From NCBI GenBank assembly GCA_951406725.2, contig OX597818.1, forward strand, positions 14,570,001 through 14,634,000: a DNA stretch of 64,000 bases, written 5' to 3'. The translations under genes were made by a program, and so were the position numbers. The notes under the pieces are model-generated. The model saw nothing but the letters and a program-made list of their open reading frames with translations, did no database searches and had not been told where the DNA came from. How positions within the stretch are numbered: position 1 is the first letter of the stretch; every line of letters begins with the position of its first letter. This document shows positions 1,908 to 59,908 of this stretch, piece after piece. The DNA is from Octopus vulgaris. Its lineage: Eukaryota.

Positions 1908-4790
1908 TGAGAAAAAAGTCGTCAGAATTTTGGAAAAATATCCTTTTATTTCATTATTTTTAGCTCTTTCGTTCATTTCTCGAACTTGTCAAATAAAATT
2001 TTGTGAATGTACAAATCCATTATGCAAACGAAACCACAGCAACAAAAAATACGAGGAGATATACTCCTAATACCTTTGTGCCCTTTAATACCCAGTTATG
2101 TACGGGATGGCATAGATTTCATCCAACGTATCCCTCCCTCTGCACACAAGGTACTATACTCACAAGTTTTTATGTCAACAATCTCTTTACTAATATACCT
2201 CACACTTTAGGCCTAGAAGTAATCAAACACTGTGTAGAGAAACATAGAGAATGGATAAATGAACGCTTCAAGACTGATATCATCACCAACGCCACACGCC
2301 TAGTATTAGACAGATAAAGGACACGGCTATGGGTACGCGTTTTGCGTCCTCATATGCATTTTGGGGCAAATCGAATGAAGATCTAAGTATATTTAACAAT
2401 ATACTGAACGCACTTCACGTATCAATCAAATTCACGACGGAATCCAGTTGCAATGAGCCACTATTCCTGAATATCCACATAAAAATACAGAGTTCCACAG
2501 TCACAACAGACATATTTTACAAAAAACTGACATACAACAATTTTTATATTTCTACTCTTGCTATCCATCACACAGCAAAAGAAACATCCCATTCAGCATG
2601 GCAAGACGCATCTGTGCTATACTGACGGACTCCAAAATACGTGAAATCCGACTCAACGAACTCAAAGGCTCCCTCACAATGCAGAAACGCATAGGATTAA
2701 TTAATGAAGGAATTAAAAAGGTGATGAAACTGAACATCACCCAACTACAGACACCTAAGGGAAAAGTTAATGAAAACACGATTCCGTTCGTTAACACACA
2801 CAGTCCTGGAATAAACAACATCTTTCACGCCATAAAATCGAACTTTCCTATACTCCTACAATGCCTCAAAATGAAAAATCTGCTTGAAAATAAACACCTT
2901 ACAGAATAGCAGACGCCAACCAAAAGATCTTTAAAAAAATACTTCACAAGGGTAAAATTCAAATCAAAAAATTAATCAGAATTCTTAGCAAAAGAATGTG
3001 GAGATAGATGTGGAACATGCAACAACATCAACAACTTCAAATACTTGGAAAGTGGTTCCCACATAAAATTCAACAGCGGATCCCTTTTCAGAATAAATGC
3101 AGGTATGAACTTCAAAACGCAAAATCTCATATACTGTACTAGCATTAAAGACCCGTCGTTGCCGGGTCATAGAGCTAGTGCATATATATATGTGTATATA
3201 TATGTGTACATATTACATGTACATCTACATATATATATACATCTACACATAAAATACAAAATACAAAGTTATATCTTGATATCGCTAGTGATAACAGACA
3301 ATAGTCTTTTCTTTAATTTATTTTTTTATTATCCATCTGGACTATTCCGTTTCTGCACGCTAATTTTATTTTTAATTTATTCCCATCCATGTGAAACCAC
3401 TTATTCAAGTTCAAATCATTGATGCAATTTTATACCAATTGCTATTTTTATTTATGTTATGTTACGATTATATTATACTTTAGTTTGATTTTAATTATTA
3501 CTTACTACATATAATTCAATTGTTATTATTATTTTTATTGTTAAAGTGAAAGTATCTGACATAAAATAGAGAAACGTTTTTGTTTCACTTTTAACACGTA
3601 ATACTGAAATAGTGGAGAAGATATGATATTGCTATGGGCTCGCTCTAGGCAAGATGTTGAAATGAATTTTTTTTTGCCCATGAAACTACATGGACCCTAA
3701 GTAAGGCATGTATAAAATTTGAATGGAATTGGTTGTGTAGTTCTCAAATTTTAGGGAATCGTAGAAGAGAAGATATGATATTGCTGTGGGCTCGCCTTAG
3801 GCAAAAAGTTCAAAATTCTTTTGCCGATGACACTCCCCGGACCCTAAGTAAGGCATGTGTAAAATTTGAATGAAATTGGTTATGTAGTTCTCAGGTTTTA
3901 GGGAAACACACAGACAGACAGACAGACACACATTCTCAGTTTTATATATATATATAAAGATTACCTGCCCAAACTGCAAAGAAAATCACATTGGCGAAAC
4001 AAATAATTCCCTCTGCCAACGTGCAAGGATCCACAGGCAACAAATCCGACAAGAGCACTTAAGCAAGATTTCATTAAGTAAGCATCTGGAAATATGCAAC
4101 GACGGAAAATTCAAAATTTTTCCCTTTTATAAATATGCACGAGACGATCTGTAATACAGAAAAGCAATAGAACTACATTTCATCAAAAAATTCTCTCCAA
4201 AGTTGAATGTTTGGAATGGGAGACAGTACATTTTGTATTCTAAATATAACTCAACGAGAAGAAAAAATAAAGAAGAGGGGAAAAAGAGGAAAGGAGAAGA
4301 GAGAAAAAAGACTTCCAGTGATGACACCGCACCTTTTTTTTTTTTTTTGAAGAGGTCATTATCCTTAAACCCATTCCAATACAATGGTTAATGACTAAAT
4401 AAATAAATGGTGAATAGGAAGGGGGATACACCTTCTCTCTCTCTCTCTCACTCTCTCTATCTCCCTCTACCTATGTCACTATCTGTCTGACTATCTATCT
4501 ATCCACATATCTATCTATCTAGCTAGCTATCTATTTATCTAACTATCAGCCTATCTACCTACATATATTTCTATATATCTATCTCCATTATCATGGAACC
4601 TCACCCCCACCAAAACAAACAATGCTCTCTTCTTCCAAACAAAACCCAAAAAAACATGTTTTATATAAATGAACAAGTTGTTTGTACATTCACAAAATTT
4701 TATTTGACAAGTTCTAGAAAGGATCGAAAGCGCTAAATAATAATGAAGAAATAGAAAGACTTTTTTCTAAAATTTTGACGACTTTTCTCA
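1908..4790 (+). mobile_element. Penelope-like retroelement (decayed RT + GIY-YIG) with inverted terminal segment
   Basis: RT fragments LTSFYVNNLFTNIPH, GTAMGTRFASSYA and IKFTTES. GIY-YIG NLIYC|ITCPNCKENHIGET...ELHFIKKFSPKLN. 1908-2015 is the reverse complement of 4681-4790. Confidence 0.9.
3139..3960 (-). mobile_element. Non-autonomous Helitron inserted in the Penelope GIY-YIG
   Basis: Minus strand starts TC and ends with hairpin gacccggcaacgacgggtc then CTAG. A|T insertion site. Removal restores tac tgt att acc tgc (YCITC). Internal ~155 bp tandem duplication at 3615-3905. Confidence 0.88.
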
Positions 4791-5790: not shown

Positions 5791-5864
<74 letters not shown>

Positions 5865-5877
5865 GCACACAAAAGTT

Positions 5878-5985
5878 CTATAATTATAAGCATAATTATA
5901 ACTAGGGTTCAGCAAAATTGCTTCACCACGTACCGAAATTTAGAAATAGCAGTTAAATACTATTCCACTACCATAAGATATGATT
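5878..5985 (+). repeat. Fragment of the hairpin-arm family seen at 51946-52080
   Basis: ctagggttcagcaaaattgcttcaccacgtaccgaaatttagaaatagcag matches ~51975-52030. Confidence 0.7.
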
Positions 5986-6152
5986 CGCACGCGCAAGCAC
6001 ATGCAAACTCGCACACACGTACTCGCATATATTCTTTATATGCTGCCATTTCTTTTGTGCGGAAAGCATTGCAATCATCAAGCGTTCCACTTCAAAATGC
6101 TGGTAGCTTACGTTGGTAGCAATGTAAATATATACGTGTGTGTGCTTGTGTT

Positions 6153-21714: not shown

Positions 21715-22090
21715 CCTGTGCACAAAATACTCAGTGGTATTTCGTTTGCCTTTACGTCCTGAGTTCAAATTCCGCCGAGGTCGACTTTGCCTTTCATCCG
21801 TTCGGGGTCGATTAAATAAGTACCAGTTACGCACTGGGGTCGATATAATCGACGTAATCCGTGTGTATGTCCTTGTTTGTCCTCTCTGTGTTCAGCCCCT
21901 TGTGGGTAGTAAAGAAATAGAAATAGGTATTTCGTTTGCCGTTACGTTCTGAGTTCTGCCGGGTTGACTTTGCCTTTCATTCTTTCAGGGCGATTAAATA
22001 AGAACCAGTTATGCACTGGGGTCGAGGTAATCGACTTAAACCCTTTGTTTATCCCATCTATGTTGAGCCCCTTGTGATCAATAAAGAAAA
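21715..22090 (+). mobile_element. Two tandem family A SINE copies
   Basis: gagttcaaattccgccgaggtcgactttgcctttcatcc...gccccttgtg..aaagaaa occurs twice. Confidence 0.85.
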
Positions 22091-22348
22091 ATATATTTAA
22101 AAAATTACACGCACACAGACAGACAAACCTACACACACGCAAACATATGTATATATATGTATGTGTATATGTATGTATGTGTATACGTATTTTGGACACC
22201 CTGTATATATATGCACAAGCATACACACACACGCACACACACACGCACACACACACACACACATATATATGTATGTGTGTGTGTCTCTGTGTGCGTGTGT
22301 ATGTTTGTGTTTTTATGTGTGTGTGTATGTATGCATATCTGTTTATAT

Positions 22349-28719: not shown

Positions 28720-30700
28720 CAAAGATTGGTCCAGGACATGTCTAACTTAATAGCACCACCTGATAGGATTATTCGAATCCTGTTTAAGTCAAGTTTTGTT
28801 TAAGTCAAGTTTTGTTTAAGTCAAGTTTTGTTCAAGTAGTGAGTTCTTGTTGGGTGAGTTGTATCCAATTATGGGTGGCTTATCTGGTATTCTTTGAAGG
28901 AATCTATCCAGACTCCGTTTAAAGTTGATGGGATCCTTTTCCTCTTTGATCTCCCTCGGGACAATGTTAAATAGGGCAGGGCCTGTTGTGGAAAAGAAAT
29001 TATGTTGCAGTGTACATGTATGTTGTGATCTTGAATTGGGCAGGAGACGTATGGCCCGTGGTCCCAGTCTTGGATTAACCTTGAAGCTAATGTTATTGTC
29101 CTTTGGGCAAAGTTGGCGGTATATTCTCCACATCGTACAAATGATGTACCGCTCACGGCGACGCTCGAGGGAGTAAAGTTTCAAGGCTTTAAGGCGATCC
29201 CAATAATCGAGAGCAGCCATGCCTTCAATTCGTTTAGTGAGTGCCCTCTGGAGTGACTCAATCCTGGAGATGTTTTGTCTTGTATGGGGAGACCACAGTG
29301 GGAAGCAGTATTCAAGGTGTGGCCGTACAAAGGAGGAGATAAGTGGTATGATGACACCTTGTTCTCTGGACCGGAAAGTTCTTAAGATCCAGGAACTCAT
29401 CCTACGAGCTATATCGACATTCTTTTTGATGTGTGCACTCCAACTGAGATCGTCATAAACAATTACACCCAGGTCTCTGATATTGTTAGAGGCTGTGAGC
29501 GGTTCCCCTGAAGGAAGAGAGTATGGCTGTTTTAGTGAGGAATTTCTTCCAAAATGCATCAGCTCAAATTTTCCCTCATTCAGTTGCATTTTGTTTCTGT
29601 CTGCCCATTGACTCACAGCATATAGATCAGACTGGAGTTGAGTTCGGTCTGCTTCTTCATTGACGATTTGTGGAGCTTAGTGTCATCAGCAAATATTTTC
29701 ACTTTGCAGTAATGTACGACACTGGAAAGGTCGTTTATGTAAATTATGAAGAGTAGCGGACCCAAAACAGTCCCCTGGGGAACACCGCTGGTGACTTTTG
29801 CTGGGCTTGAGTGGACTCCATCAACTACAACATGTTGTGTTCTATTCGCCAGGAAATACTTAATCCAGTGTAGAACTTTTCCACGGATTCCAACATTTGC
29901 CAATTTTGAGAGTAGGATATTATGGTCTACCCTGTCGAACGCTTTACTGAAGTCAAGATATATTACGTCAGAGTTCGAACCTGTTCCCAAGGCTTTGAGT
30001 ACATATTCAATGTGGTGTAAGAGCTGTGTTAGACAGTCCCTGCCACAGCGAAAGCCATGCTGATTTGCATTTAGGAGTTTGTGGGTCTCCAGGAAGTCAG
30101 CTATCCTTGATCTTAACACTCTTTCAAACACTTTAATGATGTGGGAAGTGAGTGAGATTGGGCGATAGTTGACTGCGAGGGATCTGTTTCCCTGTTTGAA
30201 AACCGGGATGACCGACTGGGATAGAAACTGCAAGTTGGTGTCTACATTCCTTCAGGAGACTAGCGGGGAATCTATCAGGGCCTACAGCAGAGTAGTATTT
30301 GACCTCATTTATTGCTGCTACGATGTCAGTGGCAGTGAAGGTTATGTCTGAGATTTTATGTTGGGAGTCAACTTCGTTCGTTTCTCTTACGTCAATATCA
30401 GTGGGAACACTAAAGACAGAGCAGTATTGTTTTTGCAGTATTTCTGCCATTTCTTTAGCATCGTGTTGGGGAATGCCGTTATCATCAATCAATGGCCCAA
30501 TGGGTGAGACAGTGGTTCTATGCTTTTTTGCATAAGAATAGAACACTTTTGGGTTCTGTTTGATGTTTTTGATTACCCACTGTTCCTCCACAGCTCTTTG
30601 ATTTTCAATAGAGGTTTTCATGTTGGTCTGCAGATGAAGTTTTTCCAGCTCTAGTCTTTTCATTGTTGTTGGATGTGGATGTTGTGTGTGGGAATATTTT
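28720..30700 (-). mobile_element. CR1/L2-type LINE, 5'-truncated, RT split by frameshifts
   Basis: NYRPISLTSH, NQHGFR, YLDFSKAFDRVDH, SGVPQGTVLGPLLF, FADDTK, LYSLERRRERY (ORFs 30133-30663, 29613-30233, 28816-29616). Confidence 0.95.
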
Positions 30701-31374
30701 AATTCTGATAGAAAACCATATGGCTGGATCTAGAGCTATGATGACGCTTCACTTTCCATATCTTTAGCATGTGGTGATCCACGATATTTAACATTTTGAA
30801 TTTATTCATAACACCCATTTTTGCAGATATGCTTGGGGGTGCGGCCAGTTCCCGGGACTCCAGATACATATTCATCACTAGCTTCAAAGTTTTTTTTTTC
30901 TTTTGCGAAACAAAGAAAATTTCTATAAAGTAATGTGTATTTGCCAATAGAGTAGAATTTGTTTTTTCACTTATTTATTCTTTAGAAAGGTTTCTCTTCA
31001 GGACTTCAGACAGCTGAAATTTTCTATGGATATTCTGTGTGCGAATATAATCTGAATAGAAGCAAAAACGAAAATAGTTTTTAAAAGATATTGAAGACCA
31101 TAAGAACTGATAGCAGCTATGCAAATTCATTTCGTTTAATCCCACCAAAGACATTACTAAGCCGGGAAGTTTATCCATACCTCTATTATTACTACGTCTG
31201 GGGCAGATAAGCTGACCGTTTTGCTAATCATAAGTTTTTAAAATGAGTTCAAGAATTAAAGATTAAGAATTTCGTTACCATAAAATTACTTTTCTTCAGA
31301 ATTAAGTGTCACTTTTATAAGATCCTGGAGGCAAAGAAGCGCCACAAATGATTCATAATAAAAATAATAATAAT

Positions 31375-38120: not shown

Positions 38121-40760
38121 TGGGTTCGAAAAGTCTGCTGCTGAAACAAACTCTCTAGAAAATTATCTATTAGCTAACCAGAACCAAGATAGCCTTAACC
38201 CTAGGCCTGGCCTGTAGTGATGCCACCAAAAGCATCCCCTAAAACAAAACGCATAAAATGGACTACAGAGGATTATAGAGATGTGTTGAAATCTTTCTAT
38301 ACAGCCCAACTAAATCCAAACAATAACCTCATAGTACAAACTTACATTTCATGGAGAAACTTAGTAGGCAATGAAGTACACAGATATATAGATGCAAATG
38401 AAATAAGTAATGTATGTAGAGGCATCATTAAGAACAAAAAGGTTAACTGACGCTGAAATTAGCAAAATTTGGACACAAATATCTCATGGTAGACCAAATG
38501 AAAACAGCAACAATGCAGCGTGGAATATGTAACAGATGTACAGAAACCAGTGTACGAGCAGTACATCTCAAAGAGGAAGCTGAAGAAAAAATAACAAAGA
38601 ACAGATATGCTTGATTGTTTTACTTGCTTGGTAGCAGTAGTTTCAGATTCTTCACCTCACTCAGAGTTAACGCCAAGTTCCCGTGCGAATTTACAACAGA
38701 TATGCAGAAAAAGAGGAGAATGTAGGCCTACCTCAAGAACACCGGTAAAGGGATGGCACGGAATTTGAGGTGAATACTAAAGGGAAGATCATAGAAGCAA
38801 AAGAAGATATTATCAGGGAACTCAGCAACACTGAGTCTACTGACATTATCAATAGAGAACCACTGGCAAAGTTCGCAAACGGCATGAAAATCAACAACAT
38901 TATCATGATATATAACGTTGCTCTTAAACGGATCTTAAGTAATAATGACCTAAAAACTTTAGATAACCTCATCTATTCCACTGCTAAATTTGTAACTGCT
39001 CAATTAGGTATCAGGACAACAGAGGAAAGGACCATTCATGTCAATAAACCTCCTAAGTCGAAAGTGGCAATGCAAAAAGAGGTCAAATTCTGCGGGCAGA
39101 TGTATCAGTTCTCGATGAACTTGCTAAAGGAGTAAATGTTAGGACGAAACGAGCTAGAAAAATGAAGAAAAATATAAAATCAAAGATCTTATAAACTTCC
39201 CTGCGACTAAGAAACAATTGAAACAACGAAAACAACTGAAAGCCCAACAACTTAGAAGATATGACAAATGAATCAAATTTTATTGAGAAAACGATATTCA
39301 AGACATATGCAAAGAAATGTTATAGGAAAATTGGCAGAAGTATGATTAGAAGTAAAAGAACCACCTAAGACTTAGGAAATAGAATAGTCCTGGAAGAAGA
39401 TACGGAGTAACAAAAATGATTATAATACTAACTGGTTAGAGTGAGACTGGAAGAAGTTAAAGAACAGAAATGGAAGGCAATAGGAATAGAAGAGCTAAGA
39501 TGTATACTTGGGAAGTCTCATAAATGAAAAACTCGAGGACTGGACCGAATTCTTAACCTCTGGCTAAATTGTATCGCAGAAGTACACCAAAATTTAGCTG
39601 CATCCCTAACTGATGCCGTCCAGAACTAAGAGAGATACCTGCCTGGCTAACTGAAGGAACAACATACCTTCTTTCAAAAACTGAAGACATAAAAAATCCA
39701 AAGAACTACCGACTAATACATGTCTCAACACCACCTGCAAGATCCTCACATTCATATTAACTGACAGAATATACGCTTTCCTTGAACAGAAAGCTATCGT
39801 TTCACAAGCTCAAAACGGCTGTAGAAAGAATTCTTATGACCGCAAAGATCAATTACTCATAAGTAAAATGACTCGAGAGAATTGCCGGAGCAAAAAGAAA
39901 AACATGCGTATGGCACGGATAAACTACAGGAAAGTTTTTGGAGTTTCCCACATAATCAAACACTTAAGGATTTGAAATATATAAGTACTCTCTTTTCATC
40001 TCCAAATTCTTACAAGATAGCATGGCCAAGTGGAATACACGTCTCCTTCTAAACCATAGTAATGGGATGAACCAAAATAACAACATCAACATTAACTGAG
40101 GCATCTTTCAAGGTGACTCCCTATCCCCATTGCTCTTTTGTATGGCACTGATCCCACTCTCAAACGAACTAAATAACACCAGGCATGGGTTCAAAGTTAC
40201 AATGACAAGCAGGCTGCAAAAATGAACGGGCAGAAATAAACTGAAGAGTGATGGAGCCAGAAGCCTCTGCATGGACAGTATATACTTCGAATTCGAAATT
40301 CTGACGTAGATCAATCAATAACCCATCAGTGGCTGAGAAGTTCAGGACTGAAAGCAGAGACTGAAGGTTTCCTATTGGCGGCACTAGACCAAAGCTTGCT
40401 CTCAATAAACTACCAGTCTAACGATCTTCAAAACGGTTCTGACCTTAAGTGCAGATTCTGTGACACATTTGACGAAACAATTGACCATCTCGTCTCGGTA
40501 TACCTTGTGCTGACGCCAAACGAATATAAAAATCGCCACGATAGGGCAGGACAGTATTTACATTGGAAAATATGTAAACACTACAAAATCAGCACTCCTG
40601 ATTACACGTATGAACATCCTGAGCCAGTCGTTGAAGGTAAAATTGTCACTATCTTCAGGGATTTTCCAGTTAACGCTGACTGAATGATCCAGGCTAATCG
40701 ACCAGACATAATTATTAAAGACAGGGAAGAAAAGACTTGTACACTAGTAGATGTAAGCTG
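38120..40760 (+). mobile_element. R4/Dong LINE C, internally deleted
   Basis: RIKWTTEDYRDVL, GIFQGDSLSPLLFCMAL, MHGQY, CRFCDTFDETIDHLVS..EYKNRHD, NRPDIIIKD. Confidence 0.88.
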
Positions 40761-41790: not shown

Positions 41791-42870
41791 CACGTTGATT
41801 GAATGACATCATCAGTTTTTAAGTTTCATTGAATTACGATGAAAAGAAATAACAAATGAGATAGCTAAGTTTAGCAAAGAAAGTCAAACCTTCAAGCATA
41901 ATTTTAGCAAACACAATGCAATATGTGAAAGAATTATTTTAGTGATTAACTGGCACCGAAATTTCGCTGGTATTTCAAAATTGTTGCACGAAAGTTACCA
42001 GCATGTATGCTCGTTTCAAACAGATATATTCTCAGCCACCTATTGTAGCCTTTAGACGGAATAAAAATATGAGATCTATTGACCTCTGTTTCTGACTCAA
42101 AGAAAAGGATCATTGGCGCATCTGCACGCTGTACCTTGAAAGACAGCCGCAAGAGAGGTAAACCTTGTTCAATATGCAACAAGAGTCAAATGAATTGCAC
42201 CAGGAATCATAACAGAAATGTTATGATTTATACAGAAGGTGGAATATGCAGAGATTCCCATTTGATGTACGCGGCAGAATGCACGAAACACAACTTGATT
42301 TATGTTGGTTTACAACAGAACAATTAAACAAAAGATTTAATGGGCACAGATTGGACGTCAGGCACATTAACAGTAGTTCGACAGCACTTGCTGAACACAT
42401 TATTTCAAATAGCTGCAATTTTGAAAAAGACTTGAAAGTGCTTATTCTCAGAAAATATTCTGAATCTATTTCCCTTTCAATACTCAAAATGCATGAGGAG
42501 AAATATGTTTACGTGTTATTAACATCACGCCCTAGAGGAATGAATAAAATGACAGGAGAATATCAAATTTACGCAAAACTGTTTGACTGAATATTCTTAT
42601 TTTTCTTTTCCTTTTTTCTTTGCTTTTTCCTGATTTTTTCTGTCTTTTTCTTTTCACCTGTTATAAAATTGAAACTTAAAAACTGATGATGCCATTCCAT
42701 CAACGTGTGGACTCTAGTTGCTCCCGTTCGTACTTTAGATCTGAATTTTATGATTTTGAACTTTAATCCCTTTTTACTTTGAACTCGACAAAGACAGGCT
42801 TGCTATCGAAATATCATTCAACGAATAAAATATCTATTGCAATTGCACCGCACTCTTCGTCGTGTCTATA
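41789..42870 (+). mobile_element. Penelope 3' fragment (GIY-YIG) with 40 bp inverted terminus
   Basis: MYAAECTKHNLIYVG/FTTEQLNKRFNGHR...ALAEH...RGMN. 41789-41828 is the reverse complement of 42670-42709. Confidence 0.85.
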
Positions 42871-42946: not shown

Positions 42947-44090
42947 CTTAATAACACAGTATAGGTAAAATGCACCGGGGTCTTTAGTCATGTGTCAAGT
43001 CACAAGGACCTGACAGATAATACTTTCCTTAAAATGTGCGTTGTGCCAAATAAGGCTGCTTTTTGCAAGACATCAATCATGCATGGGATTTGCAGTTGCC
43101 TTTAAAAGTTTTGAAGTTTAAATGGGATTGAACCCAACGCTCCGATCACCACTGGTATCACATTTATATTATCCTGTTGCATTCCATACAGTCTTGCCAT
43201 TACCACTTTTAATTCGGGGAATTTGGCGATTTTTTTTTCAACCTCTTTAATCACAACATTCATGTCATTTGGTATTGCTACATCAATGATCTGACAGTAT
43301 TTGTCTCTCTTATTCATTATGAAAATATCCGACCGACGGTGTTCGATTACACGATCCATCTGAAAATCATAGTCCCAGAGTATCGATACTTTTCCACCTT
43401 CTTGCAGAACTTTAATTGAACATGCTCATACCAATTCTCTGTTACTGGTATTTACGGCATAAGAGCCAATGAAGATACACACTTTATCGTGGCGGCACTT
43501 GTATTCTTTTTGTGCAAGGCTCTCACATCCACTTACCAAGTGGGTCACTTTTTCCACACTCTTTCCAAAGAATCTGCATTTCTGGGTGTTAGAAATTTTA
43601 TAGATGTTATACTTCATTGAATTGGTAGCGACAGCCTGGTCTGTGCAACAATGATCAGGCTCTCGATGGTACGCTTCAGATCACCTCGATCAAGCCATGC
43701 CTTCGATGCTGTATTATCCTTAACGTCTTGTATATTCTTTTCAAACTGTCCATGCATTATTATTTCAAGAAGGTTTTCTTTTCTCTTCTCTTCAGCTCTT
43801 TGGTTAAACTCTTCCTTGTCCATCATTTCATCTGCATTTACACCCATATCTTTTGCGGCATATTGCAGCAGGTCTACATCACTGTTTATCAAATACTCGA
43901 CAAGCGTTCCACTTTCACTCCTTATACAATGGTCTATACTAATTATTCCTCTGCTACCATTCTTTCTTTTTATATACAGTCTATTAGGCAGCTGTAGCGG
44001 CTGGACGTGTTCTTCACTGCTCTGACCATTCAAAAGCCGAAGACACAGAAACACTAATATGACCCACCAGGACAACTGAAAAATAAATCT
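42903..44090 (-). mobile_element. R4/Dong LINE E, 3' part, with (TAA)n tail
   Basis: RLYIKRKNGSRG, MHGQF, WLDRGDLK, THLVSGCESLAQKEYKCRHD, HRRSDI..IIDVAIP, VIPVVIGALG. Confidence 0.9.
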
Positions 44091-44773
44091 CAAAGACTGG
44101 AATATCTACAATATCAAAATAAGTTCAGATACTTACATATCTACAGTTTTCGAACACACAAACGCTCAGCTTTAAAAACTTTAATAACTACAACTTCTGT
44201 GAATACCTATCCTTTCCTTTTTTCCTTGAGTATTAGAAAATGTTAACATCCTTTTTATTCTAAGAACACTACACTGTGAAACTTTTACTCTCCTCTTCTT
44301 TGATTTTCTTTCTCCCTGAATATTAGAAAATGTATACATTCTTTTTATTGTACAAACACGAGTGTCTTCTCTAATTGGACACACAAACGAGCATCTCTAG
44401 AAAACTTTAATATCTACAATTTTGTGTGGAAGTATTATCTTTCTTTTCTCTTTGACTACCTGAATAAGTAAACATACCTTTTATTGCAACAACACAATTA
44501 AAAGCACGATAAAAAGATTTAATAAATAAATAAAATTATAGCGGTAAGCACCTGGCAATATATACAAATTACACAATTACATAAACTGTAAGCAACAGCA
44601 AAAAATATTTAAAAAAGGAAGAAAATACAAAAATATCAGAAATTTAAAATTTCAACAACAGGAGCATCAGTATATCTATATACACACGCTCGCACATGAT
44701 GTATAAAAAATGTAATATACTAATAAATATCTGTGAGTACCTCATTTCTTCTAATATATATATATATATACAC

Positions 44774-45056
44774 ACAAAATTTAAAGGACTGACCACTAAA
44801 AGTGGACGGTCAACATGCTAGATATAGACGTCAAAATCGCTATTTTCCACGAAGAATGTGTTCTCAAACAAATTTATTTGAGAACACATTCTTCGTGGAA
44901 AATAGCGATTTTGACGTCTATATCTAGCATGTTGACCGTTCACTTTTAGTGGTCAGTTTTTTAAATTTTGTATGTAAAAATATTTTAATCTTCGGATTTT
45001 TTTAATATACAAGGCCACTGGTTTTAATTGATTAATATCAATTTCTACCCTTATTC

Positions 45057-51134: not shown

Positions 51135-51680
51135 TGGTTTCAAATTTTAGCACAAGGCCAGCAAATTCGGGAGGGGAGTAGGTTGAGTACATAGACCGCA
51201 GTGCTCAACAGGTATTTACTTTATCGAACCCGAAAGGATGAAAGACAAGGTGGACCCCGACGGAATTCGAACTCAGAACGTAATGATGGACGGCATGCTG
51301 CTAAGCATTTTGGCCGGTTTGCTAACGATTCTGCCAGTTCGCTGCACAAGGCCTGAAATTTGGTGCAGGGGACTAGTTGATTGCATCGACCCCAGTGTTT
51401 CGCTGGTACTTAATTCATCGACCCCGAAAGGATGAAAGGCAAAGTCGACATCGGCGAAATTTGAAATCAGAACGTAGTGTCAGACGAAATACCTATTTCT
51501 TTACTACCCACAAGGGGCTAAACACAGAGAGGACAAACAAGGACAGACAAACGGATTAAGTCGATTATATCGACCCCAGTTCGTAACTGGTACTTATTTA
51601 ATCGACCCCGAAAGGATGAAAGGCAAAGTCGACCTCGGCGGAATTCGAACGCAGAACGTAGCGGCGGACGAAATACTGTT
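51135..51680 (-). mobile_element. Three stacked family A SINE copies
   Basis: Repeated cgacccc gaaaggatgaaaggcaaagtcgac...gaattcgaac. Confidence 0.85.
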
Positions 51681-51849
51681 ATTTTTTCTATATATGCATA
51701 TGCTGATATATAACCTACGCTGGACTCCTCATTCGCATAATCACCGAACCTGGAGCTTAACTATAGACTGTCCATAGCATTACTTGACACCTTTGGGTCT
51801 TCTTGACACCATTACCTCTCATAACCTATATATATATATAATTTATCAA

Positions 51850-52470
51850 TTATAATAAAGGGTAAAATTAATTAATTAACTCGTAATTAATAATTCCACC
51901 AAGTAAAATTCGGCATGAAAAAGGACCATTTTTCGGTAAACTTAAACAATATTTTATAATTACGAGTATGACTATAATTAGGGTTCAGCAAAGATTTGCT
52001 TTACCACATACCGAAGTTTAGGAATAGCAGGCAAAGAACCTTAGCTATTTCTTCTACTATAAGAAGAGACTCCCGGACAAAGCAAAATATTAGAAATAAC
52101 CCACGCAGACAGAGAGGAAAAATAACGAAATTCCCTCGGTATTTGATTACCTGTGGACGCGTTTCGGAATTAGATCGGTATGAAGAATATAAAAATCATA
52201 CTTCACCCAAACATTTTCCTCTTCAGCACAGGATTCCCCGATATTAAATTTGAGAGCACTGGAAAAATTGAACATACCTATCCAATTCAAAACAGTATCA
52301 GACAGATCATATTCAACGTCCAGTACCGGCGAGTTTTGTCCGGGAGTCTCTTCTTATAGTAGAAGAAATAGCTAAGGTTCTTTGGCTGCTATTTCTAAAC
52401 TTCGATATGTGGTAAAGCAAATCTTTACTGAACCCTAATTATAATTATACTCGTAATTATAAAATATTGT
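51850..52470. mobile_element. ORF-less fold-back element (135 bp arms) with a hammerhead in the loop
   Basis: 51946-52081 is the reverse complement of 52335-52470. Flanked by (TA)n. Confidence 0.85.
52150..52232 (-). ncRNA. Type I hammerhead ribozyme motif (intact core)
   Basis: cctgtg-CTGAAGA-ggaa...ttcc-GAAAC-GC-GTC-cacagg. Confidence 0.9.
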
Positions 52471-52481
52471 ATATATATATA

Positions 52482-52840
52482 TCACCATGATCACCTTGAC
52501 CGACCAGTCCGTCGAGCGTCCATTTGACACCGCTGGTCACAGCACGCTGTTCACTCCTCGCTGGATCGCGCCTTTCTCATCCACGTGATCCCAATCGTCC
52601 TCCTGAAATCGTAGCTCCACCGTCGCGGAGGCCTTCCGGGTTGTCGTTTCTGCTCGCGCGGGTACCACTCGACAACTGCGCGGGTCCACCGATTATTGGT
52701 GAGCCGGGCGACGTGTCCAGCCCATCTAAACTTGCTGCGTGTATATTCTGCGATGACATCCCTCATGCCGGACTTCTCTCTGATGGCCTCGTTACTGATG
52801 TGCTCTCACAACGAGATTCCAAGCATTGACATTTCCATAT
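52482..52840 (-). mobile_element. RTE-clade LINE 3' end
   Basis: SKFRWAGHVARLTNNRWTRAVVEWYPREQKRQPGRPPRRW. Confidence 0.92.
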
Positions 52841-52849
52841 TCACACACA

Positions 52850-52916
<67 letters not shown>

Positions 52917-53277
52917 TAGTAATCGTAGCCACTTCAGCATGGCTGTCCGATTGGGCGGACTCTGCTGCGATTTTTTAACCCCAAGAAGACATCTCCACTA
53001 GCTGGTTAACGATGCAAAGCTGCATCCGATAAAATTGTGAGCAGGCGAACGAACACCTATCATCTCATAGCGACCGATCGGATGCACCTGTGCATTGTTA
53101 ACCAGTTAGAGGAGATTTCTCTTGCTTTTAAAAAAATCGAAGTAGAGTCTGCTCGAACGGACAGCCATGTTAAAGTGGCTACGAATATTACTTATTAGTA
53201 CAACTACTGCTTTAATCTCTTAGAGAGATTTTAGAACTAGCGACTGTGTGTTCGCTTGAAATATATATATTGCGTGC

Positions 53278-53498
53278 CAGCTGGCAGAAACGTTAACACG
53301 CCGGGCGAAATGCGTAGCCGTATTTTGTCTGCCTTTACGTTCTGGGTTCAAATTCCGCCGAGGTCGACTTTGCCTTTCATTCTTTCGGGGCCGATGAATT
53401 AAGTACCAGTTACGCGCTGGGGGGCGATGTAATCGACTTAATCCGTTTGTCTGTCCTTGTTTTTACCCTCTGTGTTTAGCCCCTTGTAGGTAGTAAAG

Positions 53499-53502
<4 letters not shown>
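53278..53502 (+). mobile_element. Family A SINE with target-site duplication atatatattgcgtgc
   Basis: Duplication ends at 53277 and 53541. Confidence 0.88.
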
Positions 53503-53536
<34 letters not shown>

Positions 53537-53576
53537 CGTGCAGAGCGAGCTGCTACCATTTCTAACAGAAAGGTGT

Positions 53577-53627
53577 CCAGTACTGAGGAGTGGCAGAAAT
53601 AGACCGAAACCAGGACTGGTCTGCTGG
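53577..53627 (+). ncRNA. Type I hammerhead ribozyme motif (intact core, weak stem II)
   Basis: ccagta-CTGAGGA-gtggcagaaatagacc-GAAACCAG-GA-CTGGTC-tgctgg. Confidence 0.75.
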
Positions 53628-54082
53628 TTCTGTCCCTAAGAGATGGTAGGGGTTAGCTCCCCTGTTCGCAATTTTATCGGATGCAGCTGTGTATCGTTAA
53701 CCAGCTAGTGGAGATGTCTCTTATGGTTAAAATATCGCAGATGAGTCTGCCCTGTTAAAGTAGCTACGAATATTACTTGCCAGTACAACTACTACGTTAA
53801 TCTCTTAGAAAGATTTTAAAACTTGCATTTTTGCTTGTTATATATATATATATATACAACATAAACTTGCAGTTTTGCTTGTTGTATATATATATATATA
53901 CATATATACATGCGTATAATAGGGATAACCACTAAGCGGACATCCAATATGCTAGAAGAAATAGTTAAATTCCATACCACTATTAGGGATAAAACTTCGA
54001 AGGGAAAGAAAAATAAAAACATTTACCATCTTATTACCCTTGATATTATTAACATATATATATATATACACACACATACACG

Positions 54083-54194
<112 letters not shown>

Positions 54195-55157
54195 TCCTAA
54201 TAATGTAATTAGCTCCAATAAGTATGTCAGACCAAGATTTATGTTGAATGGAACAGTAATTATAATATCACCTTTAGAAAGTTCATGGTACCTAATAGTC
54301 AATAGCACGTAACGTCAATGTCTGCGCTTATTATTATATGATTTCAATTGTATTTATTTATTTAGAGTTCCCGAGATTTGCTTTCGTAAAATTTCCATTG
54401 TTTCTGATATTGAAATATTTCTGTATGTGCGTGAGTACGTTCTATTAATATCTATATAGAAGATAGAGACGTGATTAACCCGACCAGTCATAAATGTATT
54501 TCAACTATGACAATTCTACATTATTAAATGTGTTCTCAAAGATTTGATTTGAGGAAGATTTCAGCTCCATAGCGTTTACTAGTCTATTGTAGTTGTTGTT
54601 CTTGTAACAATAGTGGTTGTTATCGATATTTTTACTATTTCCCACATTGTTACACTCCTGCATATTTATTTTCCTTCTTTCGTTTATATCAGCCATGCGG
54701 CGGCGGTCATACTGGAGCACCATTCCTTTCTTTTGCTGGGCTCAAATCTCGTTTGCAGATCCATGAAAAACGAGTCTCCACCAAATACTCTACTATATAA
54801 TTGTGCACACCTTTCCTTGTCGTGTATGCCATAAGGCATGCAAATCTGATGGAGGCCTCAAATGACATTTTGAGGTCCACAACGATCAGAAATTAACTAC
54901 AGCTCTTGGTAGTCCAAATTTGATATGCAAACTATGTGGGTGATTTCCAATACATTGTCTGGTTTAAAAGGTCACATCAGACGCCATGATGGATCTAAGG
55001 CGTAGGTACGAGAGGTGGTCAGACTCTGCATAAGGAGTAGACAACCACCATGCTTGCATGCATCTATGCATGTATGTATGTGTATATGTATGTATATATG
55101 TATGTATATATGTATGTATGTATATACGTATGTATGTATGTATGTTTGCATACATAC

Positions 55158-56189: not shown

Positions 56190-57940
56190 GTCAAGCAAAT
56201 TGTATTGATAATACAATTTCGAACTGAAAATCAGTCAATGTTGAAGAACCCCGTTGTAAATAATATTCATTGTTTCAATTTTTATTGGTGTTGAAATGAA
56301 TAAATTTTTGCTGCTTCCATCTGGCGAGCAAGCAGTGGGAGTAGCATGTAGTAGAGAGGTCAAGTGCAACTACCTTGAGTGAGTAACCCTGAATTTTTTT
56401 AATTGAAATACCAAAACTTAGTTTGACTGGAAACTGCAGCGTCATAATTTCTAATGGAACATATGTAGGTACAAGAGGAATTTTTGAAATAAAGACATTT
56501 TCTCCTTTGTTATGATTGTTGCTTGTTGGACATGGGACTTCATGGAAGTAACAATTAAGTGAATTCCATTACACAGGTGAGGTGGTCAAGATTCCCAAAC
56601 AACATAATGGGAGCACCCAGTTTTAGTGTCATGTTATGCAGTGCCATCCTAATAGGTTCAAGTGTGTTCAGAAATTCAACAGTGTACTGAACAACCTGAT
56701 TTTGATCGACTGTTGTCATTTGATCGAAAAGTCATTTCTAATGTATCTATTAACTTTTGAAGAAGTTCATGATTGAGTTCATCAACCATTTCATTAGTTG
56801 GAGCTAGTATAGCTCTTTCACATAGTCAGTTTACATCAGTGTAATTGACATATAAATTATGAAGTACTTTATCCATAATATCCCTTAAAGAAAGTATCAT
56901 TTAATCGCATGTAATTTCATGTAGTTGAAGTCTTGATTTGAATGATAATATCCTATTATCAATCTTAAGAATCTCGTATGATCACCTTGTAGAAGTACTC
57001 TGATGTTGCCTGTAAAATGAAGTTCTTTTACATTTCTTCGAAGGTGCGATTTTTTGAAGCAGGCATTAACCTCATGAGCTTTTGATCCTTTGGGGATAAC
57101 TAACAATGTTTGACGAAAATCTCCTCCAACAAGAACTGATTTTTATCTTCTTGGAGGGTACGGTCAAGTAACTTTGGAGCTCCACAATGTGACAGTGAGC
57201 TCTTCCCAAGCAATGAGGCAAGTTTGTTAGAGAACTGTTGCCCTGGCACAGTTTTTGGAAATGTTGCACATTTTCGATTCTTTCCTTGCAAGGTTTAGAG
57301 GGAGCTTGAACATGGAAGGAACAATTCTCCCCCCATTGAGGAGAGTAACTACAATACCAGAGGAGGCAACACTGGAAGAAGGTTAAATTTTCTTTATTTC
57401 CATTTGGGATTGCAGGTAAAAGTGACAAAAAGAGCTGTTTTTTTTGTATGTCCTGACATATGTCATAGCATCTTGTGTTCGTGCAAATATCGAGGACAAC
57501 TTGTGAATAATAATGGGAGGATTATAAGTTGCCCCATGATTTTATATCACTATCTGTCCTCAGAGCATCTTGGAGAGGGACTTTGGTTTTATTGTTACGA
57601 ATGTAGAGGAGATACTGACTCTCAACTATAGCATACATATCAACCAGGTATAGCTGAAATAGATCAGGACACATGTGTAATTGATTTGATTGTTCTGGTC
57701 TTAACATCAGTTGATAAGAATAGAAGTCATTTGACGACACCTTTTTGTTTATAATTGGCTCTCCTGTTGCAGGTTCAATCTGTGGAATATTGAAATGATA
57801 CCCATCTTGTCCATTCCACAAAATAAAAGGATACTGGAGAGCATCATAAGAGGGATGAGTCTCTGAAACATGTTTAAGGTTGTTATCTCGAGCAAGAATG
57901 AGAATATCACGATTTTCATGGGGATCACCTACTATAAGGA
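56190..57940 (-). pseudogene. Helitron Rep/PIF1 helicase remnant
   Basis: DALQYPFILWNGQDGYH...FYSYQLMLR...FQLYLVDMYA, DFRQTLLVIPKG..EVNAC.K.S.L, RAILAPT, LKLGAPIMLL. Confidence 0.88.
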
Positions 57941-59908
57941 TGGTTAATCCATTAGATGTAAGCTCGTTAAAATGGCGTAAAATGCCCTTTATTATAGTTT
58001 ACTATAGACGTAGCGAACGGGAAACACACGCTCACAAACATAGAGACACTGATAGAATTGAAAACAGCAAAACGTGTACACACGGAGTTCAAGCGAAGCG
58101 TACTGTTGTCAGTATAGACGCAAAACACACTTTCTGTAACGTAGTTATGCTATAAAACTTTTTTTTGTGAATATTTCCAAAAGAAATATTCCAGCGTCGG
58201 AAAGTCACCAATTTAGTAAAAATTACTATGCGTCACCAATGTAACAAAGTACAGAAAGTCAGCATTTATGTGGAACATGTACTAAATGTTATTAAATGTT
58301 ATTAAATTCAGGATTAAACGTAACGGTGAAGTCAAGCCCGAAGAAAATTCAATTTTTCTTATAAAAATAATTTATTATTTTACAATTTTTAAACGAGCGC
58401 TGTACAAAGTGTATACGAAGGAATATGTTGTTGTTGAAAACATTAAGTAATTTAAAAGATTTGCTGAAGGATATATGTAGCAAAACATAAATTAATTTGA
58501 CATTACTATATATTCTAACTGTGTAAGGTTATAGGCTGTAGAATAAATACTGACTAATACTGACCAACGCAAAAATGTTGCGCGGCATTGAATACTAACA
58601 GTGTTAAAGCAGCGTAGTAGGAATACGACAAGGACTCTAGGACTGTTAAAACAGCATTATCTTCAAACTGGTTATAAGGACTGGAATAACATTTCTGTAA
58701 TTATATTGAAAGAGCCGCTAAGGCTTTCTACTTCGCCAAGTTTCCGAATTTGTTATAATAACCAGAATAACATTTTTTTTCAGATATATTTGCGAGTGTT
58801 TTGAGTGCTGTTAAATGAGCCAAATCTTCACGCTGGTTATAAAAACCAGACAAATATTCCAGCACATAAGTAGTGATAATCGTTAATCCTGTTTAAAACG
58901 CAACTCTCCATGAGGAAAAGGAAAACCCAAACAGTGATACTTCAAAGTGAATGCTGATGTTCGTTCAACATCCAGGCCGTAACTAAATTAAACTCTTTCA
59001 AAATCGATGCGTTTCACTGTTGGCGGTACGATTACATACATATAGTAAGACAGACACTCACAGACATACATTCAAGCAGACCTCAAGCCTATCGCTTTCT
59101 CTTTGTGTGTCTGTTTCTGTATTTAGATATGTGTGTGAGTGAGTGAGTGAGTGAGTGAGTGAGTGAGTGAGTGCGTGTATGTGTGTGTGAGTGTGTGTCA
59201 GTCGTCACACCTTCACATACACTCACACATATACTTCTTGATCATCGGCCTACCAAAGGTAACGATCGCACAAACACACACAAATTGACAGACACATACA
59301 CAGTCGGACAGAACATGTGACGTCGTCATCATCGTGGTATAAAATGTTATTTACGGTAGTTAACTTATAGAAAGATCATAATGTCAAACTTTTACAATGC
59401 AAATATTTAAACGAAAATAAAGTTTATTTGGTAGCCGAAAGATTACTGAATCTTTTGATACCCCATACGTCAAAATCGACAACTAAGTTTTCGAATGTAT
59501 AAGGAACATATGCACACACATATACACAAACTCTGCTTTATTTATATAGAAATACTAGTAATGCATCCCGGCGTTACCCGGAGGTTATGATCTACAAGCA
59601 CATTGTATTGTTTGCTCTTTTCTTATGGGAAGAATTGGCACAGCTGATATATAGTTAATGGAATAATGGAAGCTATTGTTTGTTTAATAGTGAAAGGCGA
59701 GGGTGAAATTTGCATGAAAGTGCATTCTGTTCTTAAGAAGGATCAGAGACTATGTAATGTTTCATCGTATACGAGGAGATTAATGCGATTTTGTCCAGAA
59801 ATTACGTTTTCGATATTTTAATTTTCCCCTTATCCCCACCGCAAATTTGTAACTTTTTTCGAATTTTTTGTCATCTACATAGAAAAGTACAGAGATTACG
59901 AATCTGGG

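Follow-up and report, generated by a model that had tools for sequence, protein, structure and literature searches.

What kind of element is the hammerhead-bearing repeat at positions 52914 to 53839 of the stretch of Octopus vulgaris DNA analysed here (64,000 nt of contig OX597818.1, hereafter the window), and was it copied from a circular RNA? A sequence-only reading had described it as a greater-than-unit-length insertion of a non-LTR retrozyme, as expected from reverse transcription around a circle. The locus is probably an old and inactive copy of an abundant, protein-free repeat of ~335 nt, retrozyme-like and living as a non-autonomous parasite of Penelope-like elements (PLEs). By class it is a dead retrozyme-like copy: it is neither an active retrozyme, since it has one hammerhead, nor an autonomous PLE, since it has no open reading frame (ORF). 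The family itself is new; elements of its kind are already known from animals. Retrozyme and Penelope need not be treated as alternatives, because animal retrozymes have been proposed to be non-autonomous derivatives of PLEs.

The surrounding window has an animal-like background that is rich in microsatellites and retroelement remnants, with about 20-41% GC in 2-kb bins. The anatomy of the locus is as follows:

52853..52913, no strand assigned: (TA)n microsatellite sequence, the left flank and probable target
52914..53077, minus strand: unit copy in inverted orientation and truncated at its 5' end, matching about 53627/53629-53778
53077..53260, plus strand: direct, 5'-truncated upstream copy, equivalent to 53676-53839
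53261..53277, plus strand: left 17-nt target duplicate of the SINE, made of the internal (AT)5 junction tract and 7 nt from the start of the following unit
53278..53524, plus strand: SINE with a (TA)n tail, a later insertion with a few 5' bases absent
53525..53541, plus strand: right 17-nt target duplicate of the SINE
53534..53839, plus strand: full unit, with the type I hammerhead inside
53530..53576, plus strand: 5' arm of a long imperfect hairpin, pairing with 53628-53675 and carrying the hammerhead at its tip
53577..53627, plus strand: type I hammerhead
53628..53675, plus strand: 3' arm of the long hairpin
53676..53839, plus strand: remainder of the unit, which contains several short hairpins and lacks 13 nt that the other two copies have
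53840..53902, no strand assigned: right flank, (TA)n at 53840-53856 and then a 44-nt-period duplicate of the last 21 nt of the unit plus TA

The insertion thus laid out holds about 1.55 direct units and forms no array. The inverted piece, which the sequence-only reading had placed at 52915-53075, was recovered at 52914-53077 and matches the unit at 84.8% (blastn, E 5e-34). Relative to the unit, it begins 6-8 nt beyond the predicted hammerhead cut site, on the 3' side, and ends 61 nt before the 3' end. The direct partial copy sets in at the long hairpin's base and abuts the inverted piece head-to-head, with a spacer of 0. The recurrence of the repeat at 53077 and 53676, also claimed from the letters, is borne out by a blastn match between 53077-53270 and 53676-53849 (74.7% with gaps, E 2e-33) and by the start-to-start spacing of the direct copies, which is 599 nt. 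When the SINE and one 17-nt duplicate (264 nt together) are excised in silico, a period of 335 nt remains, in agreement with the ~335 nt expected once the SINE and its target duplication are removed. The 17-mer holds seven non-AT bases and is therefore a real target duplication.

The three segments of the insertion have diverged from one another considerably. Over their full length the two direct copies are identical at 135 of 164 aligned columns; in the region shared by all three, the segment pairs agree at 87/103, 97/116 and 90/103 aligned columns (82-87% overall range). The nested SINE, which may resemble the common octopus SINE, agrees with the two copies closest to it in the window at 165/183 and 164/185 positions (89-90%), so that the locus is old enough for the 13-18% divergence among the segments. 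The same SINE family also forms short tandem arrays at 51175-51690 and 21737-22099, with a period of about 185-195 nt. At position 53709 the inverted and full copies carry T, and the direct partial copy carries A, the letter found in about 97% of family depth (see below). This shared letter favours a single template for the inverted and full copies, which would leave the third segment aside. Counting against a single template are the 13-18% by which the segments differ and the lack of T at 53709 in the direct partial copy.

A single hammerhead at 53577-53627 with a longer stem III had been proposed, and its core letters, stems I and III, and GUC triplet are all present. Stem I has 6 bp (53577-82/53622-27), the CUGAGGA core occupies 53583-89 and GAAA occupies 53606-09; stem III, ACCA(G)/(C)UGGU, has 4 bp, and cleavage is predicted after C53621. 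In the window copy, stem II contains a bulged U and a G.A mismatch (53593/53603). The motif may nevertheless be classed as a type I hammerhead, because this mismatch appears, from family sequences, to be local to the window copy. A strict descriptor yielded 2 cores in the 64-kb window versus 2 across 30 shuffled windows combined (mean 0.07). A further hammerhead candidate at 40333 failed a stricter scan. In Rfam searches the motif, submitted alone, stayed below threshold (HH9, E 8.7, 12.8 bits where the gathering score is 52), and the whole window gave microsatellite-driven matches only, among the 150 matches listed out of 220. No second 5' arm or hammerhead rose above the level of shuffled sequence in 52000-53076 or 53840-55000.

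Folding of the unit gave a mixed picture. The linear unit folds with a z of -2.4, and 3 of 100 shuffles fold as well; folded as a circle, it has a z of -1.7 and 2 of 60 shuffles are as good, the sequence being that of a decayed copy. The catalytic fold of the window copy (-44.1 versus -57.1 for the best alternative) is 13 kcal/mol dearer, which counts against the reading as a retrozyme-like element. In size and composition, the 335-nt unit, with 42% GC over a 315-nt monomer, falls within the 150-450 bp and <50% GC of retrozymes. Its coding capacity amounts to 26 stop-to-stop frames of at least 30 aa, none of which resembles, by eye, a reverse transcriptase (RT) or a GIY-YIG or other endonuclease, and no ORF lies between the direct copies.

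Outside the octopus, pattern scans for the hammerhead in two metagenome sets gave 0 matches. Two viral contigs with the hammerhead core pattern (L001, 1501-1542, and L002, 1501-1535, minus strand) were rejected as relatives, the rest of the unit being unmatched (best E 0.17); L001 itself reads like a possible hammerhead core.

That the locus belongs to a large family became evident when four public runs, each in the form of assembled contigs, were compared with 53530-53842 at 80% likeness or more. The two DNA runs contain 755 (X1) and 806 (X6) family contigs, of which 15 and 9, respectively, are at least 99% alike; 318 of the 755 in X1 are less than 90% alike. At the hammerhead the summed depth reaches about 27,000 (27,300), and mid-unit it reaches 42,482, versus 50 for the contig of the locus itself; summed depth is not equal to copy number, and X1 may be the source of the window. 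Family depth nevertheless indicates many loci. It dips at 53530-53562 and 53728-53749 and is lower after 53790; these features, which divergence of the window copy can cause, were disregarded. Two further runs, which are taken by guess to be RNA, contain 43 and 10 family-like contigs, with 0 go-back joints among the 15 of 28 rows listed, a result that is neutral as to expression or circles.

The family also clarifies the state of the ribozyme. C53603, which restores the pair with G53593, is present in 22,644 of 23,912 depth (~95%). A53593 or T53603 is found in a minority of family depth, and among the difference rows listed, beyond which there are 64 more, a single contig (X17 record 17) combines the two, a compensatory change. 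Since stem II is paired in the family and mismatched in the window copy, the hammerhead of the window copy has decayed.

Head-to-tail joins are found elsewhere in the family. They run from 53837-39 to 53571-74 and make up 4 of the 15 joint rows listed (28 total); among the rows listed, 3 contigs in X1 and 4 in X6 contain such a join, and because X1 and X6 share the letters of one junction, the independent join events number fewer than seven. A short AT tract lies in the one go-back join for which the letters between are given. As the joins recur at other places, head-to-tail closure is a feature of the family. Among the short contigs listed, none holds a whole unit or two hammerheads. No loose end was recognised as coding among those listed, and in 330 further rows some loci may have an ORF attached. 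Six of the joint rows listed are opposite-strand. Those linking 53570-71 with 53619, 53632 and 53669 probably stem from the hairpin of the unit itself and were left out of account; the three others, all from X6 (53571 and 53578 with 53753; 53605 with 53682), may be real inversions.

Non-LTR retrozymes are tandem repeats of 150-450 bp that carry type I hammerheads, and PLEs are their likely helpers (Cervera and de la Pena 2020, PMC7229834). Their circles are expressed in coral (220-245 nt), mussel (350-390 nt) and axolotl (330/350 nt) (PMC7229834). The octopus repeat resembles the metazoan retrozymes described there in unit size, GC content below 50%, one type I hammerhead per unit and lack of a recognised ORF, as well as in its large family and its head-to-tail joins, and perhaps in the self-pairing predicted for its RNA. 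Unlike those dimers and multimers, the locus has 1.55 units with one hammerhead, whose self-cleavage and circular RNA are putative. It also has an inverted 5' piece, while the word 'inverted' has 0 occurrences in the main text of PMC7229834. Stem III, at 4 bp, is longer than the usual 1-2 bp (PMC4209133).

A PLE origin of retrozymes has been proposed (PMC5680766), and Li, Clavereau and Pollet (2026, bioRxiv 10.64898/2026.07.22.740005) argue that retrozymes are non-autonomous PLE derivatives. In their definition an active copy requires two consecutive hammerhead units, and 1 of 9 tested dimers cleaved; the octopus locus, with one hammerhead, falls outside it. The same PLE dependence is proposed here, and solo 'monomer' copies, perhaps dead offspring, are also described in that work. 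The basis differs, however: theirs is co-occurrence and the phylogeny of pseudo-LTRs (pLTRs), mainly in vertebrates, and the basis here is insertion geometry. A 2026 repeat annotation of Octopus vulgaris (PMC13282606) lists 190 Penelope-like families and, in the sections available, does not mention ribozymes. Literature searches found no report of a cephalopod retrozyme, and the supplement of PMC7229834 may list one.

The geometry in question is that of PLE insertions. According to Craig et al. (2021, PMC8557442), PLEs form partial tandems, have an adjacent inverted 5'-truncated copy and a 30-40 bp tail, and use (TA)n targets; non-autonomous head-to-tail Chlamys elements are described in the same study, in which the mechanism that sets where PLE reverse transcription starts and stops is called unresolved. 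At the octopus locus, the 5'-truncated copy at 53077-53260 precedes the full unit at 53534-53839, and the 5'-truncated inverted copy at 52914-53077 is directly adjacent at the 5' end. There is (TA)n on both sides, a weak mark in one locus of a TA-rich window. The right end overruns the inverted copy by 61 nt, versus the 30-40 bp of the PLE tail, and this stretch also lies within the tandem. The locus therefore shares with EN+ PLEs and with putatively non-autonomous Chlamys elements such as MRC1 (PMC8557442, PMC4209133) the 5'-truncated partial tandem and adjacent inverted copy, as well as the microsatellite target, perhaps the extension of one end and, as in canonical PLEs, a hammerhead in the repeat. 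It differs from EN+ PLEs in the length of the extension and in having no RT/GIY-YIG ORF. Between the repeats, where an autonomous PLE has its RT and GIY-YIG ORF, none was found, nor was an autonomous partner that shares the unit sequence found in the window.

These likenesses suggest how the insertion may have arisen. Tandem source copies would be transcribed and cut by their hammerheads into monomers, and these may then be closed into circles by ligation, as in the retrozymes of coral, mussel and axolotl. The GIY-YIG endonuclease of a PLE would nick a (TA)n tract, and the nick would prime the PLE RT at the short (AT)n stretch of the unit. The RT would copy one whole unit, cross the hammerhead site, go 184 nt further and stop at the base of the long hairpin. 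Priming on the other strand would yield the inverted piece, whose end would fall a few bases away from where the ribozyme cuts. A SINE would later have entered the AT junction, and point changes would have built up.

How much of this requires a circle? Since the cDNA crosses the cut site, the template would be a circle, an uncut multimer or the product of a template jump, and between circle and uncut multimer the chances appear evenly balanced. The proposal of a greater-than-unit insertion by way of a circular RNA therefore stands in part: the insertion does exceed one unit, the ~335-nt unit has no recognised ORF and bears one hammerhead, and head-to-tail joins occur elsewhere; the circle, by contrast, is not singled out, because PLE insertions ordinarily take the form of a partial tandem next to an inverted, 5'-truncated copy. 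Indeed, a circle-templated insertion of more than one unit has already been proposed for PLEs themselves (Cervera and de la Pena 2014, PMC4209133). Moreover, the 3' end here falls on a short (AT)n tract that belongs to the unit, so that 3' ends would be fixed even for a circular template, and the absence of circular permutation among copies may mislead as a check. Both 5' ends coincide with structural landmarks, which at one locus is a lead only.

A bolder version of the preferred reading holds that the element is a true circular retrozyme and that a 335-nt circle, acted on by PLE enzymes, left its traces in the insertions, with AT-fixed priming at genomic microsatellites, reverse transcription past the hammerhead site, a stall at the hairpin base and an inverted end at the cut 5' end; at present this is a tentative and somewhat doubtful idea. 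If it were true, and if hundreds of copies showed these three end points, the mobilisation of retrozyme circles by PLE enzymes would have direct structural evidence behind it, and the family would also offer a way to test the origin of the tandem and inverted ends of PLEs. Short hammerhead repeats are common in animals, and one more family is in itself ordinary. The marks of PLE insertion on a protein-free unit, however, lend geometric support to a link that has so far been argued from co-occurrence and phylogeny. The hundreds of 335-nt copies are, in addition, a convenient set in which to map where PLE reverse transcription starts and stops.

The unit might instead be the pLTR of an autonomous PLE, and the locus a terminal fragment of such an element or an ORF-less pLTR tandem made from full-length-element RNA, so that the repeat would have no independent life as a small RNA. 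PLE hammerheads are indeed mostly single motifs of truncated PLEs (PMC4209133), Xenopus retrozymes match PLE pLTRs (bioRxiv 10.64898/2026.07.22.740005), the combination of inverted copy and partial tandem is the PLE layout (PMC8557442), and PLE-like coding remnants occur elsewhere in the window, as judged by eye and from a weak Atlas lead. In this locus and in seven other contigs, however, the 3' end of the unit is followed directly by the hammerhead arm again; upstream of the hammerhead lies no coding sequence but the other, complementary arm of the hairpin; and among the rows listed no loose end was recognised as coding. The proportions of the hammerhead are also canonical (6-bp stem I, short stem II), in contrast to the minimal motifs of rotifer PLEs, in which helix I is short and helix II long (PMC4209133). 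A pLTR origin of the locus thus appears unlikely.

It is also conceivable that two or three separate family insertions piled up in one (TA)n hot spot, or that a local duplication and inversion produced the arrangement. The 82-87% identity of the segments lies within the spread of the family (318/755 contigs below 90%), the direct copies are joined by an AT tract, which is what the insertions are presumed to target, and the direct partial copy lacks the rare T at 53709 of the other two. Against this, the inverted and direct pieces meet head-to-head without a spacer, as in PLE insertions, a head-to-tail join containing AT recurs at other loci, and the inverted and full copies share a letter present in about 3% of family depth; the age implied by a nested SINE 89-90% like its neighbours suffices to explain the divergence. 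Such a pile-up is accordingly improbable. Spread at the DNA level, as a satellite or by a Helitron-like rolling circle with the hammerhead-like motif as a passenger or chance match, is very improbable: the motif does fall below the Rfam threshold, but the strict descriptor yields just 0.07 cores per shuffled window, the family retains stem pairing with a compensatory change, and the 5'-truncated and inverted pieces point to reverse transcription. The reading as an old copy of a retrozyme-like PLE parasite remains the preferred one.

The window contains several other elements of related kinds. A second, unrelated hammerhead element lies 440 nt upstream at 51943-52473 (minus strand), with a type I core at 52226 (minus strand) whose stem II region measures 54 nt and whose stem III (ACGCGU) is minimal and palindromic. 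This hammerhead is enclosed by 139-nt inverted arms that are 95% complementary. The element has a PLE-type layout, namely a unit with an inverted 3' copy at its 5' end, and it appears to be the younger of the two; an open frame of 68 codons at 52147-52353 (minus strand) runs through it. A diverged arm fragment of the same element, with about 75% identity, adjoins (TA)n at 5860-6035. Between the two hammerhead elements, the GC-rich segment 52490-52830 (minus strand) looks by eye like the 3' end of an RTE-type LINE.

Possible coding remnants of PLEs were noticed at two places. Within 42000-42830 (plus strand), frame 42213-42590 looks by eye like the zinc-finger linker and GIY-YIG end of a PLE, and a possible decayed minimal hammerhead comes after it, at about 42780-42820; the remnant has no Pfam or Atlas support. 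The broken frames at 2050-3150 (plus strand) look by eye like the C-terminal part of a PLE RT with a CxxC linker, and here the Atlas lead amounts to 0.83-0.84 only, with PF26215 HTH_animal on 46-53% of members. Pfam gave no significant match for three PLE-like remnants. A near-perfect hairpin of ~106 nt at 44820-44925, possibly a miniature inverted-repeat element, has a sub-threshold Rfam microRNA match. Finally, broken frames at 28816-30729 (minus strand), 38749-40683 (plus strand), 43614-44105 (minus strand) and 57522-57998 (minus strand) resemble, by eye, remnants of a CR1/L2-type LINE, R4/Dong-type LINEs (two) and a Helitron.
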